From an uncultured Clostridia bacterium (lineage in GTDB: Bacteria > Bacillota > Clostridia > Christensenellales > UBA1242): a DNA stretch of 64,000 nucleotides. Under the pieces are notes generated by a model, which worked only from the letters and a program-made list of their open reading frames with translations, was not told the DNA's origin and searched no databases. Within the stretch, counting starts at the first letter, position 1. Every line of letters begins with the position of its first letter. A program made the position numbers and the translations under genes. The stretch is taken from the NCBI GenBank assembly GCA_937925475.1, contig CALEWH010000022.1, positions 82,835 to 146,834 on the forward strand, read 5' to 3'. Of this stretch, positions 43,473-49,936 are shown in pieces.

Positions 43473-46166
43473 TTATATTGTCTCGTAAATTATCTCAATT
43501 TTGTATTTATGAAAATTGTATGTGCTTTCTTCAAATGTTTTTGTAGTCTCATTGTATACATAACTACTATCTTCGCCCTTACTATCCAACTCCAAAGATA
43601 CAGCAAATTTATTTTCTTCTAGAGACTTATTAAGGTCGTTTTCAAAGTACGACTTTATACTAAGGATTATTTCTTCTTCGGTTGCTGTTGACAAATCCAA
43701 ATTTAATACATCGGTCAAGAAATCATCTTGAATAGTGATCATGCTATTAAAGTTGGATTTGTAGTTTTTAATATATTCGATAAATCTATTATATCTATTA
43801 GTGCCGTCATCTATATTTGAAGAAGTAGTTTGAAGTATATTTGTATTGCACGACAAGTATAACACAAATCCCTTTTTCAATCTACCTAAGCTATTGTATT
43901 TATAACCCACATTTACTATATATTGTGCCAACACTTTCTCATATTTACACTCATAGTCATTTCCATCATAAGTGACTTTTGTTGTCGAGCCATCTTCATT
44001 GATAAGTGACCAGTTATCGCTTAAAGAATTTATCATGCCCATATTTGTAATGCCCATAAAAGTATTGTCACCACGAGCAGTTTGAAGCATATTTACTATA
44101 CTTCCAAAGTTTTGATTATTAAACCAATCATAGTCAATCAAAACTTCATACATTCCAAAGTCGTTTTTGTACAAATAATCAAGAGTATTTGAAAGATCTT
44201 CAATACTATCTATTACTCTCGAATAACCAACACCATTCTTGACAAAGACTGCGCTAGTATAGTAGCCGTACATATTGTCGGCTGGAATAACGCTATCGCT
44301 TATCTTTACGCGATTTGGAAATGGTGTATGACTACTCGATATGTAGTCGTCATTTACTAAGAAATATCTGTGACAGTTGTATTCGTCCTTTTCTGTAAGT
44401 TTTGGTGTACGATAATAAGTCGAACCATTTTTTACCACATCATACTTTACATTATCGTCTTCATCTTTTACAGTGTCATATTGTTTGAGTTCGGTCCAAG
44501 TAAGGTCGACAACATACCACTTGCCCAGCAATCTAACTTTGTTCCACGCATGGCCACCACCACTTGCTGTGCCCATAATACGCAAGCAATCTATGCCTTC
44601 CATATTGCATAGAAGCGAATATGCTTTGCTTAGCCCATCGCAGACCACTGCGTGATTTTCGTCCAAGAACATTCCTTCAAGATAATAACAACTATTTTCA
44701 GTAGACGCATTATTGTAGTAAGCATCATAGTCATAACATCCTGTATTGGCTATCCAATCAAATATACTAAGTGCTTTTTCATAGTCGTCCATTCCGTCTT
44801 TTATAATCTCACGCAAAACATTTTTTGCCGATTGATATATTAGATAAGCACGACTTGTCTTGTTTTCAAATAAAGGTGTAACATTATTTTCAACAGCCCA
44901 GTAAAGTTGTTCGCTAGTAGAACAAGTTGTTGTAAGCACACACTTGTCAGATGCAAAATCATCATAATTTACAGGTCTGTCAGGATAAACTGTAGTTTCA
45001 TAATAAGGTTTTTCTAGCAGATATTGACTGATAGTAGGTTTACTATTTCCATAATACTTACCATCAATTTTATCCAGATTTGGCTCTACATCTTGAAAAC
45101 TCTCTTTTAAAATAAATGTTGTAGGTATTCCTTCACCGCTATTTTTAATTTGCAGATAAGGTACTACAAAATTAAATGTTTCGTAGTAAGACCACAAGTC
45201 ATACGATGTTTCAATGCCCATTATGTACTTTTGATGAACATATGCTGTGCCTGTTTTGTAAGCAAAGGTTTGCATACTAAAATAATCGGTTTTGTGGTTT
45301 TGGTAAAATGAATACGAAACCATAAATTCAAGCTGGGTTATGCGATTTATATACGCATAATAATATAGGTTTTGAAGTTCCTCATAATCTTCGATGTAAA
45401 AGTCATACACTCCGCCGTCAAACACATAAATATTTGAGTATTCACCATAATTTAGCGGATTATAATAAAACACATCACTTACATACAGACTATCATCGCC
45501 GTCATAAACGCTCGAAATTGTGATTGCTAGTATCTCATTGCCTTTTAGGTATTCTGTGACATTAAAGAATGGTTTTGTGACATAAAAGGCGCGTATTTTG
45601 TCAGAATTGTCTGTGCTGTCGGTGTAGTTGTTGCAAAATATCTGAACAACATATTTTGTCGCTTCTACGCCGTCTTTTTGTGTCGCTATCCACCACACAT
45701 CAAGGCTTGTAGTGTTGTATTCGACATTTTTAGGCGCATAGTTCGACTCTCTAACCAAACTTATTTGGCTTGTATCGTAGCCACCGCTTGGATTGTTTCC
45801 GACATATATGATGACCACATTGCTAAAACGGCTGTCTTTGTATTTTTCACCACCAAGGCTCTTCACTTTGATAGAATACATTCCGTCATTAACAACATCA
45901 TTTGAGTAGTCATATGTGTACACTGTTTTGCCCGTTTCGTCGATTGTTTCGACTACCACATTATTGACATACACTTCGTATGCGGTCGCCTTCTCATTGC
46001 CATACCATTGGATTGTTTTGGTTTCTCTATTGTCTATAAGTTCGGGTGCACGAAGAGCTAGTGTGCCACCAAAAGTACAAGCAGAAAGCAACATTGCTCC
46101 CGCCAGTATCATTATTAGCGCTCTCAAACCGCTCTTTTTAAACTGTTTAAAAATGTTGTTTTTCAA
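43473..46166 (-). CDS. Lipoprotein with a transglutaminase-like cysteine-protease core (897 aa)
   Basis: The lipobox is MLLSAC. The core is VVCDGLSKAYSLLCNMEGIDCLRIMGTASGGGHAWNKVRLLGKWYVVDLTW, giving the Cys-His-Asp order of Transglut_core. The start is TTG, with a GAGGG SD 6 nt upstream. Confidence 0.7.
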   Translation of the reverse strand: MKNNIFKQFKKSGLRALIMILAGAMLLSACTFGGTLALRAPELIDNRETKTIQWYGNEKATAYEVYVNNVVVETIDETGKTVYTYDYSNDVVNDGMYSIKVKSLGGEKYKDSRFSNVVIIYVGNNPSGGYDTSQISLVRESNYAPKNVEYNTTSLDVWWIATQKDGVEATKYVVQIFCNNYTDSTDNSDKIRAFYVTKPFFNVTEYLKGNEILAITISSVYDGDDSLYVSDVFYYNPLNYGEYSNIYVFDGGVYDFYIEDYEELQNLYYYAYINRITQLEFMVSYSFYQNHKTDYFSMQTFAYKTGTAYVHQKYIMGIETSYDLWSYYETFNFVVPYLQIKNSGEGIPTTFILKESFQDVEPNLDKIDGKYYGNSKPTISQYLLEKPYYETTVYPDRPVNYDDFASDKCVLTTTCSTSEQLYWAVENNVTPLFENKTSRAYLIYQSAKNVLREIIKDGMDDYEKALSIFDWIANTGCYDYDAYYNNASTENSCYYLEGMFLDENHAVVCDGLSKAYSLLCNMEGIDCLRIMGTASGGGHAWNKVRLLGKWYVVDLTWTELKQYDTVKDEDDNVKYDVVKNGSTYYRTPKLTEKDEYNCHRYFLVNDDYISSSHTPFPNRVKISDSVIPADNMYGYYTSAVFVKNGVGYSRVIDSIEDLSNTLDYLYKNDFGMYEVLIDYDWFNNQNFGSIVNMLQTARGDNTFMGITNMGMINSLSDNWSLINEDGSTTKVTYDGNDYECKYEKVLAQYIVNVGYKYNSLGRLKKGFVLYLSCNTNILQTTSSNIDDGTNRYNRFIEYIKNYKSNFNSMITIQDDFLTDVLNLDLSTATEEEIILSIKSYFENDLNKSLEENKFAVSLELDSKGEDSSYVYNETTKTFEESTYNFHKYKIEIIYETI

Positions 46167-46207
46167 ACCCGACCCTCACTCAATATTATATAGTCAAAAA
46201 AACTAAA

Positions 46208-46612
46208 TTAGTCGCATTTTACATGATGCATTTTGTACGAAAAAGGCAAAAGTTCGGCAATAGTATGTATCTCAGTGCCATTTTCGCCTTTTACTATCAC
46301 TCTTATGTTTGGCGCATATTTACTTAAAAATTGACGACATTGACCACAAGGTGATAATATTTGACACTTGTCATCAAATAGACCTACTGAAACTATAGCT
46401 TCAAAGTCCTTTTCGCCAGCAGTAAGTGCTGTGCCAATTGCATTTTGCTCAGCACAGACACAGTTCATGCCGTCCATATACATATTTACACCAAAATATT
46501 TTTTGCCCGAACAAGCCAAAACACAACAACCAACTGTGTGTCTATCATTGTCACCACGCTCCAAAATTAGTTTAGTCGCAAGTCCGATCAACTCTTCATA
46601 TCTTGTTTCCAT
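46208..46612 (-). CDS. cdd: Cytidine deaminase
   Basis: Zinc motifs CAEQNAIG and SPCGQCRQFL are present. I moved the start to the ATG ending at 46612 (METRYEEL), with a GAGGTG SD. It begins 2 nt after the upstream stop. Confidence 0.85.
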   Translation of the reverse strand: METRYEELIGLATKLILERGDNDRHTVGCCVLACSGKKYFGVNMYMDGMNCVCAEQNAIGTALTAGEKDFEAIVSVGLFDDKCQILSPCGQCRQFLSKYAPNIRVIVKGENGTEIHTIAELLPFSYKMHHVKCD

Positions 46613-48792: not shown

Positions 48793-48823
48793 CTTACCCT
48801 CCTTAGATATTTTCAATTCATTT

Positions 48824-49936
48824 TTATTTTATACAAAACCAACTACTTGGAACACTTGTCCAAGGTCGATTTGCAGTATCACCTACTGTGTACGCATTGC
48901 CCGCATACAAAACGCACTCAGCGCTAATTTGTATAATAACAGGTTTGTTGGCCATACTTGCCTTGGCAGTAATCGATGTGATCGGAGATATAATTCCGTC
49001 TTTTGCAAGAGCCTTGTTGTAATACAAATATCCTGCCCAAGCAGTGTCTAGCCTTTCGTGTGCAATAAAGTCACTGTTAAATGAAACATCAGCATCAGCA
49101 CTTGTAAGTGTAGTTTCATTATCAAGTGTCTTAATCGAATAGTACAACCTTACAAGTTCGGGTGCAGTGCCTGTATTTTTTACTTTCAAGTTTGTGGCAG
49201 ATGTCGCAGTAGAAACAGCACCTAATTGAAGTGTATAATTTCCCGCTTTTGCACTACTTTCTTCAGCTAAGAAAATGTTGTGAAATTTGCATTTTCCGAT
49301 TACGCCTGAACCACTACTATTTGTCCATCGAGCAGTGTATCCAAGAATCCTATAATTTGCAGTTGTGTTTTTAAGATTTGCCTCCGATGGGGTCTTAAAC
49401 GATGCAGTGACTATAAGGAAATTTCCTTTTGTTATGGCAGTATTTTTTCTGCCCATATCAACTGCCGAAAATCCTGAAACTCCCGAATACAACAAAAATC
49501 CTTTGTTTAGGTCATATGTATTTGTAGCGTCGCTTCTTATATCAGTCATTTCGATTGTGTATGAAATTGTGTATGTAGTGTCACCTTTTAAGTGGCTTGT
49601 CACCCACGCATTATTAAACACAACAGTTGCCCAAGCCGAAAACTCAGCACTATTTGATTTTTCATCTTTTGTGACTGCTTGCGAATAATAGTCGCTAGTC
49701 AAAGATATATCACTGACATTTAAAATATTTGTAGCAGCACTAATGTCTGTTGTGTTATTAAGCACGCCTATGCCCGCTTTTGCAACAGTGGCTGTGGTCG
49801 TATTTGAGTATGATTGAGATTTGGACAACCATGTCGAAGTCGGCAAAATAAGTATGGTGCCTGCTAGCATCATAAATGTAAGACAAATTGACAATGTAAT
49901 TATAAAAAATTTTGTTTTTCTTTCCATTTTTCCCAT
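48824..49936 (-). CDS. TasA/camelysin-like paralog 1, enlarged (370 aa)
   Basis: The anchor is FFIITLSICLTFMMLAGTILILPTSTWLSKSQS. The C-terminal module carries LKVKNTGTAPELVRLYYSIK, GYLYYNKAL and VIIQISAECV. The start is ambiguous (49936 or 49927). Confidence 0.45.
   Translation of the reverse strand: MGKMERKTKFFIITLSICLTFMMLAGTILILPTSTWLSKSQSYSNTTTATVAKAGIGVLNNTTDISAATNILNVSDISLTSDYYSQAVTKDEKSNSAEFSAWATVVFNNAWVTSHLKGDTTYTISYTIEMTDIRSDATNTYDLNKGFLLYSGVSGFSAVDMGRKNTAITKGNFLIVTASFKTPSEANLKNTTANYRILGYTARWTNSSGSGVIGKCKFHNIFLAEESSAKAGNYTLQLGAVSTATSATNLKVKNTGTAPELVRLYYSIKTLDNETTLTSADADVSFNSDFIAHERLDTAWAGYLYYNKALAKDGIISPITSITAKASMANKPVIIQISAECVLYAGNAYTVGDTANRPWTSVPSSWFCIK

Follow-up and report, generated by a model that had tools for sequence, protein, structure and literature searches.

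The window analysed here, a 64-kb stretch of contig CALEWH010000022.1 from an uncultured Clostridia bacterium, contains six co-directional minus-strand open reading frames (ORFs) within positions 43473-49936, which encode four TasA/camelysin-like proteins designated P1, P2, P3 and P4 in gene order, a small enzyme of the cytidine-deaminase fold (cdd) and a lipoprotein with a transglutaminase core (TGase). This locus is probably a derived copy of a conserved sipW-P1-P2-P3-P4-TGase operon that builds a heteromeric TasA-type cell-surface filament. That P1-P4 are genuine, very divergent members of the TasA/camelysin (PF12389) superfamily is well supported by comparison of sequence profiles; they are four distinct, anciently diverged orthologous lineages kept in fixed order, and the TGase lipoprotein is their conserved operon partner across deep divergence. 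An earlier note made from the DNA letters alone had described six tightly packed genes on this strand, which the ORF list confirmed, and had read the first four products as TasA/camelysin-like, an assignment borne out by profile searches and hhalign comparisons (97.9-99.6%).

Superfamily membership and architecture of P1-P4

BLASTP comparisons among P1-P4 gave E-values near noise (1e-3 to 1), which are too weak on their own to establish paralogy. Family-versus-family hhalign comparisons were performed using seven orthologues per protein, taken from syntenic loci, and linked the P2 and P4 families (92%, E 6e-7) and the P3 and P4 families (89%, E 2e-6, 175 columns), with a weaker link between the P1 and P4 families (41%). 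The resemblance among the four proteins is considered real because the profiles show it, although plain BLASTP does not.

The hmmscan search against Peptidase_M73 that the earlier note had put forward as a check came back empty: none of P1-P4 matched PF12389 (Peptidase_M73 / IPR022121) at E ≤ 1 or reached its gathering score, and the orthologues from two related loci (L013 and L015; loci are referred to by L numbers) were also unmatched by hmmscan, with the exception of one weak match. A P4-family profile retrieved 196 proteins at E ≤ 1e-3 among 1.84 billion representative sequences, and PF12389 was matched by 25 of the 124 P4-profile matches that were scanned (best 4.6e-10), with the bridging proteins P0118 (34.5 bits) and P0099 (23.2 bits) scoring above the PF12389 cutoff of 22.5 bits. 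Distant P4-profile matches have canonical SipW-cognate N-termini (GT[LMF]A[YW]F[TS]).

A canonical camelysin-like set of 24 proteins, 20 of which match PF12389, was picked from the P4-profile matches and aligned with each family using hhalign. This gave 97.9% (E 3.5e-13) for the P1 family, 98.3% (E 1.4e-14) for the P2 family and 98.1% (E 1.1e-13) for the P3 family, scores that are independent of how the set was picked, and the P2 family also aligned with the P2-like class (98.6%, E 6e-16). The P4 family gave 99.2% (E 1.4e-19), and a second comparison of the P4 alignment with the canonical set gave 99.6% (E 5.5e-24, 159 columns), values that are partly circular because the set was drawn from P4-profile matches. 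The motifs PGD, YVR-x-K, DGYYYY, LF..VTF and AEAVQ were lined up between P4 and the canonical set; the shared ordered motifs described in the earlier note are present in all four proteins, but its motif lists were not in gene order. A hidden Markov model (HMM) of the canonical set matched exactly the P1-P4 ORFs in the window and no others (P1 at 1.2e-6). P3 has only 11 homologues and P4 only 14 in a collection of 5.8 billion clustered proteins; all of the former and almost all of the two sets together are metagenomic, and a pattern scan of JGI metagenomes with alignment A6 gave no matches. A type IV pilin or pseudopilin identity was considered and rejected, there being no G↓FTLxE class III signal and a 60-aa cytoplasmic tail on P4.

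In P1, an N-terminal transmembrane or signal helix ends in PTSTWLS, the P2 motif VTHTFFGDVKSGNSGNIVIATLDF resembles the TasA N-terminus, and the signal helix of P3 ends in the SipW-cognate-like motif SFTFA↓WYVKS. Across all lineages the helix of P1-P3 ends in [ST]-x-[AT]-[WY]-[FLY], as in STLA↓WLEE, ITVA↓WFMD and GTAA↓WYIR of L019, and this motif aligns with the cleavage site of TasA, GTWA↓AFND. The SipW-cognate signal model TIGR04088 matched none of the window proteins in the NCBIfam scan, and one protein of the L015 cluster reaches its cutoff (19.2 versus 19). P1 orthologues, which are first after sipW in L019, L020 and L021, range from 201 to 540 aa in length, the difference being due to an insertion that follows the first strand. 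P1 is hypervariable within an otherwise conserved operon: residues ~60-230 of the window protein form a ~160-aa inserted domain with no family match, which is also present in L005, L006 and L008, is larger in L013 and L018, and is absent in L001, L003 and L007.

P4 is built differently: its Q/N-rich cytoplasmic tail carries a conserved helix (LRRLGQQLN), and the protein further has a poly-Lys stretch, a single membrane-spanning helix and an ectodomain resembling TasA. Its orthologues share a low-complexity cytoplasmic tail of very variable length, LRRLGQQLN or a variant of it as a conserved short helix, a stop-transfer sequence of poly-Lys or poly-Arg and a single transmembrane helix, and in general lack the T-x-A-W/Y-F cleavage-type motif; P4 is therefore likely an uncleaved membrane anchor or base. 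This agrees with the earlier note, which had proposed the 281-aa member as the membrane base, and the subclass with a cytoplasmic tail, one transmembrane helix and no SipW-type motif is widespread. Separately, the P4-profile matches (P0026-P0095 and others) include a large unannotated TasA-like class with a biased cytoplasmic N-terminal tail of up to ~440 aa that is Q/N-, K/P/T/S- or K/E-rich, one membrane-spanning helix and, at the C-terminus, the conserved motif W-x-[TS]-A-P-x-x-W.

AlphaFold2 (AF2) models of P3 (predicted local distance difference test score, pLDDT, 74.7) and P4 (pLDDT 82.5) have a transmembrane helix followed by a beta-sandwich; most of the predicted P4 ectodomain exceeds pLDDT 90, and residues 30-45 of the P3 model are disordered. 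The segment right after the transmembrane helix is highly conserved, yet is of low confidence in the monomer models of both proteins, as expected for a donor strand; low-confidence modelling of the donor strand has also been reported for BsaA and TasA (PMC11580942).

Operon conservation and partner genes

In close relatives (P4 identity 48-100%) the arrangement MFS-DegV-P1-P2-P3-P4-cdd-TGase-GerABC-giant gene is found throughout, and this sharing of the whole neighbourhood could be plain inherited synteny. The order P1-P2-P3-P4 recurs in L001-L013 and L018, with P1-P2-P3-P4-TGase and no cdd in L012, L013 and L018 (P4 about 40% identical), and L014 has a P4-like gene followed by TGase. The complete order sipW-P1-P2-P3-P4-TGase is present in an unrelated neighbourhood in L019, where the family HMMs matched at 1.8e-16 (P1), 1.8e-21 (P2), 5.9e-32 (P3) and 3.3e-43 (P4), and the same arrangement occurs in L020, the genomic contexts being unrelated. 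In L021 and L022, two additional TasA-like genes lie between sipW-P1-P2-P3 and the genes P4, TGase and gerA. L015 has a split form in which sipW-P1-P2-P3 is divergent from a P4-like gene, a TasA-like gene, P4, TGase and gerABC, and here ribosomal genes follow downstream. Conservation of gene order in relatives, which the earlier note had suggested examining, thus extends to both close and distant loci. Because the order recurs in deep, rearranged relatives, sipW-P1-P2-P3-P4-TGase is taken as the conserved core, and we infer it to be the ancestral form of the operon. A sipW gene is present in the orthologous operons of L015, L019 and L020-22, and the SipW proteins of distant operons scored 55.7 and 66.2 bits (the latter in L019) against TIGR02228 (cutoff 51.85). 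The GTDB genomes with the locus are metagenome-assembled genomes (MAGs) labelled uncultured Christensenella sp. or Clostridia bacterium.

The earlier note's Cys-His-Asp lipoprotein with a transglutaminase core was confirmed. It matched Transglut_core (PF01841) by hmmscan (2.3e-9, 37.9 bits versus a cutoff of 23), with a readable lipobox LSAC (Cys30), a fibronectin type III (FN3)-like N-terminal region, the catalytic core and a C-terminal domain; across 34 TGase homologues the Cys509-His539-Asp554 triad does not vary, and the lipobox Cys hardly does. The nearest Protein Data Bank (PDB) entry is 9crn_A (2e-18), with an FN3 match at 0.011. Membership of the MAG6410 family of TGase lipoproteins (NF045980) was rejected, as the match (2e-13) covers the core region only and scores 49.5 bits against a cutoff of 450, which indicates a common domain only. 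The TGase gene lies directly downstream of a P4 orthologue in L014, L015, L018, L019 and L020-23. The association of TGase with the TasA-like genes is specific: of 80 metagenomic loci from a pattern scan with TGase, only the few with full-length similarity have TasA-like genes, whereas TGases of a larger and more remote subfamily (L025-L098), with 26-28% identity across the core, were never linked to them.

The cdd product matched PF00383, the cytidine/dCMP deaminase domain (2e-12, 47.2 bits versus a cutoff of 25), and has readable zinc motifs (CAE and PCGQC), but fell below the equivalog cutoffs of NF005314 (95.3 versus 131 bits) and TIGR01354 (68.4 versus 113.65), so that a cytidine deaminase of the homotetrameric type is a tentative assignment. 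The gene is translationally coupled to P4 and is kept throughout the clade with P4 48-100% identical, and is absent from deeper relatives, including L012, L013, L014, L015, L018, L019 and L020-L023, where nothing of it lies between P4 and TGase. A functional membership of cdd in the system was therefore rejected, given its absence from all deeper orthologous operons, and it is treated as a passenger because it has no plausible role outside the cytoplasm, even though it is coupled to P4. The earlier note was thus right that cdd is embedded in the operon, with a 1-nt gap after P4, but it is not part of the system; cdd is an insertion limited to the window clade, a passenger that is probably co-transcribed but functionally unrelated.

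Proposed filament assembly and alternative explanations

In the proposed mechanism, P1-P3 would be exported by the Sec pathway and tethered by an N-terminal helix ending in the SipW-cognate-like motif, at which a signal peptidase would cleave them; the window lineage may use a housekeeping peptidase for this, or a SipW whose gene lies elsewhere. Once free, the N-terminal strand would enter the beta-sandwich of a neighbouring subunit by donor-strand exchange, as in TasA, BsaA and AbpA. P1, with its hypervariable insert, would likely be a distal or adhesive subunit, and P4 would stay in the membrane as the base or nucleator of the filament. In the most speculative step, the TGase lipoprotein would mature the filament on the outer face of the membrane, either by Gln-Lys isopeptide cross-linking or anchoring of subunits, or as a papain-fold peptidase. 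A more specific proposal makes this lipoprotein the enzyme that assembles a TasA-type pilus of four subunits, by cross-linking the subunits covalently or fixing them to the cell wall or the P4 base, with a possible tie to spore biology in view of the recurrent GerA neighbourhood; it is tentative and, in our view, unlikely. If true, Gram-positive bacteria would have a third way of making covalent surface filaments, catalysed by an enzyme of this kind, beside sortases and autocatalytic isopeptides.

Several results weigh against the reading as a filament operon. Direct scans of Pfam and NCBIfam gave no relevant family for P1-P4, and sequence and profile searches of the PDB with P2, P3 and the P3-family alignment gave no match and no TasA-related entry. 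Foldseek searches of the PDB returned nothing below E 1e-3 for the P3 or the P4 model; the TasA fibre 8aur ranked seventh for P4 (E 0.052, TM about 0.25), and TasA was outside the top 50 for P3. The archaeal bundling pilin 7ueg, at rank 4 (E 0.025), and several chaperone-usher pilins were also weak matches in the P4 list, so that the fold comparison with TasA and archaeal bundling pilins advised in the earlier note brought both up for the P4 model, but not significantly, and is weakly suggestive. No SipW was detected in the 64-kb window by regex, tblastn or phmmer, nor did the same searches reveal one in the 10-kb flanks of the operon of L001-L013 and L018. The absence of SipW reported in the earlier note therefore stands for the window, but the peptidase is not foreign to the system, as orthologous operons begin with one of SipW type; the missing sipW in the window lineage is a lineage-specific loss or relocation, the negative result covering the window and the 10-kb flanks. 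P1 and P2 of the window clade have Thr/Ser, not Ala, at position -1 of the cleavage site that would be used, and cleavage of P1-P3 is putative here because of this change together with the lack of a nearby SipW. A full-length TGase orthologue (L024) also occurs alone, without TasA-like neighbours. That a filament forms, that it does so by donor-strand exchange and that the TGase lipoprotein has any of the suggested roles are all inferences.

One alternative is a spore- or germination-linked envelope module, in which the proteins would form spore-surface fibres or a scaffold around a GerA-type receptor, and which would explain why the genes stay beside gerABC. The germinant-receptor genes lie 3' of TGase on the same strand in the window clade, L012/13/18, L015/16, L021-23 and L029, and these represent at least five types of locus that differ in arrangement. 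GerAC, like the TGase protein, is a lipoprotein, and B. subtilis TasA was reportedly first described, by Stover and Driks in 1999 (cited in PMC11580942), as a spore-associated protein. However, gerA is found neither beside TGase nor nearby in L019 and L020, which have the complete sipW-P1-P4-TGase operon, a terminator separates TGase from gerA in the window, the P1 promoter is sigma-A-like and not of a sporulation-sigma type, and all of the loci may stem from one order, so that the adjacency may be inherited synteny. We consider such a module unlikely; the recurrent TGase-gerABC adjacency itself may reflect a spore-related function or lineage history.

It is equally doubtful that no filament is formed and that P1-P4 act as a membrane-tethered beta-sandwich adhesin or shield with uncleaved helices, the TGase being a peptidase or cell-wall enzyme acting on other substrates. 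The lack of SipW in the window and in the flanks of close relatives, the changed -1 position in P1 and P2 of the window clade and the failure of structure searches to recover the TasA fibre fold securely would all fit this explanation, as would the fact that the transglutaminase-core fold is common to papain-like peptidases. Against it, P1-P3 have kept both the cleavage-type motif and the conserved strand behind it over deep divergence, orthologous operons encode a dedicated SipW, and four distinct paralogues in fixed order are typical of heteromeric pili. That the TGase lipoprotein is an operon passenger like cdd, with an independent function, is very unlikely: the solitary orthologue in L024 and the unlinked distant subfamily would fit, but adjacency of P4 and TGase is maintained in at least six arrangements (the window clade, L014, L015, L019/20, L021-23 and L018), where cdd and the flanking genes are not kept. 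A heteromeric TasA-type filament, with the TGase lipoprotein as a conserved partner, is the preferred reading of the locus.

Locus anatomy, neighbouring genes and comparison with known systems

Table 1 Positions of the six operon genes and of associated features in the window
Feature	Position	Strand	Description
P1	48824-49936	-	370 aa, ORF
P2	ORF 48175-48816; likely 48175-48792	-	205 aa from ATG 48792; ORF reaches TTG 48816
P3	47479-48156	-	225 aa, ORF
P4	46614-47459	-	281 aa, ORF
cdd	ORF 46208-46636; likely 46208-46612	-	134 aa from ATG 46612
TGase lipoprotein	43473-46166	-	897 aa, TTG start 46166
Sigma-A-like promoter TTTACA-17-TAATAT	49950-49978	-	Consensus scan and conservation
Intrinsic-terminator-like hairpin, closing the six-gene unit	43389-43418	-	GACAGAAAAGT...ACTTTTCTGTC then T-run
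GC-rich hairpin, alternating purines/pyrimidines	50012-50042	-	Between degV and P1, just upstream of the promoter
gerA-gerB-gerC germinant-receptor operon	39494-43352	-	Pfam domains; downstream neighbour of TGase

Inspection of the gene junctions refined the starts and spacing (Table 1). For P2, the ATG is the likely start, as it is preceded by AAGGAGGG and gives the same length as in the orthologues, whose N-termini were compared; the gap after P1 is then 31 nt, and the 7 nt given in the earlier note is obtained only with the upstream TTG as the start. The other gaps in that note, of 18 nt (P2-P3), 19 nt (P3-P4), 1 nt (P4-cdd) and 41 nt (cdd-TGase), were reproduced. That note had ascribed strong Shine-Dalgarno (SD) sequences to most of the genes; SD sequences lie upstream of cdd (GAGGTG) and TGase (GAGGG), and P1 has no strong SD. 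The terminator that the earlier note had placed after the last gene was recovered as a terminator-like hairpin read 43418-43389.

The best promoter-like site upstream of P1 is of the housekeeping sigma-A type by look, and the promoter block GCTTTACAAAAAA...TTGTAATAT is nearly identical in the window, L001, L003, L004, L005, L007, L013 and L018. As this conserved block lies directly upstream of P1, P1 is taken to head the unit in the window clade, and all six genes lie enclosed between promoter and terminator. A sporulation-sigma promoter upstream of P1 was rejected, given that the conserved promoter is of the sigma-A type. Just upstream of this promoter, a hairpin (ATATGTGTGCGCACACGACGCGTGCACATAT) followed by an AT-rich palindrome (TATATTATTTATAATATA) occupies 49985-50045 on the minus strand, and similar elements are found at the same position in relatives, though with a different sequence. 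The hairpin and palindrome may be an operator, another regulatory site or a boundary element.

The upstream flank of the operon consists of pheST behind a T-box, an MFS transporter gene and degV; the T-box leader (103 bits) lies at 57089-57281 on the minus strand, upstream of pheS-pheT. Downstream is the GerA/GerB/GerC operon, identified by GerA (2e-143), Spore_permease and the N- and C-terminal GerAC domains in Pfam, followed by a giant ORF. In L015/16 the genes rpsF-ssb-rpsR lie downstream of gerABC in place of the giant gene, and L029 has the order TGase-gerABC-pheST. In the window, the giant ORF (19901-39385, minus strand) encodes 6,494 aa with an N-terminal signal-anchor helix, Listeria-Bacteroides (Flg_new) repeats and no LPxTG; proteins of 4,000-8,800 aa are encoded at this position in relatives, and in L019 a giant ORF of >3,500 aa is directly upstream of sipW. 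In cdd-less relatives an opposite-strand ORF of 181-234 aa with no family match lies between TGase and gerA (L012 3675-4379, L018 12805-13506 and L013 13385-13930, each on the minus strand); the L012 and L018 copies are nearly identical, and no counterpart of this ORF exists in the window.

Bacteria and archaea alike use TasA-type fibres as a major scaffold of the matrix, and the known systems have one or two subunit types together with a chaperone-like factor or autocatalytic locking. The architecture of the present locus has four fixed paralogues, so far found in metagenomes only, and includes a family member that is transmembrane and reaches the cytoplasm, the P4-like class accounting for many of the 196 clusters (50% identity); a conserved Cys-His-Asp enzyme partner sets the locus apart. 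Its carriers are uncultured gut Clostridia (Christensenella-like MAGs) whose proteins are left unannotated by Pfam and NCBIfam models, and a large fraction of the superfamily is missed by present family models. The locus therefore offers concrete, testable candidates for filament anchoring and maturation.

The literature searched on TasA/camelysin with transglutaminase or a germinant receptor gave no account of such a combination, in agreement with the earlier note, which had not recognised it as a described system. The operon is a previously undescribed version of a known TasA-type fibre system, and is rated as such because the TasA-family literature found makes no mention of a GerA neighbourhood, of a TasA paralogue that spans the membrane or of a transglutaminase as partner. 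Heteropolymers, and operons that encode more than one TasA/BsaA paralogue, are known or have been proposed (PMC11580942, PMC13082335). An HMM survey of the family recovered 2,172 members, only 632 of them in the InterPro family, and noted multi-paralogue operons with LPxTG, SpaA, sortase and signal peptidase genes as neighbours (PMC11580942); neither a transglutaminase nor a membrane-anchored paralogue is listed among the gene neighbours in that survey.

By functional analogy, sortase-assembled Gram-positive pili also combine tip, shaft and basal subunits with a membrane-associated Cys-based enzyme, although the present locus has no sortase, no LPxTG and no homology to them, and covalent assembly here is hypothetical. 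The archaeal AbpA/AbpB pili (PDB 7UEG; PMC9245690) are likewise composed of very divergent TasA homologues found only by sensitive profile or structural methods, and AbpA is made without a dedicated signal peptidase in the locus, its processing being attributed to a generic enzyme (PMC9245690). They differ in being archaeal, in having other operon content and in lacking a TGase partner, and their structural match to P4 is not significant (E 0.025). The B. cereus sipW-tasA/calY locus with CapP (PMC13082335) resembles the present operon in having a heteropolymeric TasA and CalY filament with a dedicated accessory factor and no dependence on sortase, but that factor is chaperone-like and not a Cys-His-Asp enzyme, and there are two paralogues instead of four and no transmembrane paralogue.

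The B. subtilis tapA-sipW-tasA operon (PDB 5OF1, 8AUR), whose fibres assemble by donor-strand exchange (PMC9674648), encodes proteins of the same superfamily by profile-profile homology. TasA shares with these proteins PGD, a YxR-x-K strand, a turn rich in Tyr and a final AxQ/E strand, its T-x-A plus aromatic signal end has a likely counterpart in P1-P3, and the two systems have in common a dedicated archaeal-type signal peptidase (here in orthologous operons) and a co-encoded accessory or anchoring protein; TapA, like CapP, is an accessory factor (PMC10151520, PMC13082335). In contrast to the one major subunit plus TapA of B. subtilis, the window has four paralogues, one of them bitopic with a cytoplasmic tail, a TGase-like lipoprotein and no sipW at the locus, and its proteins fall below the PF12389 threshold. 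The C. perfringens sipW-bsaA-bsaB-bsaC operon (PMC11580942) is also a clostridial multi-paralogue TasA-family operon, for which donor-strand exchange is proposed; BsaA polymers are membrane-anchored via an uncleaved signal and locked by autocatalytic isopeptides (PMC11580942), features that the present operon would share. BsaC, a vWA protein, is absent from the present locus, and the BsaA lock is an autocatalytic Asn-Lys bond with an N-E-K triad, whereas here a separate TGase-fold enzyme is encoded, with a putative role in maturation.

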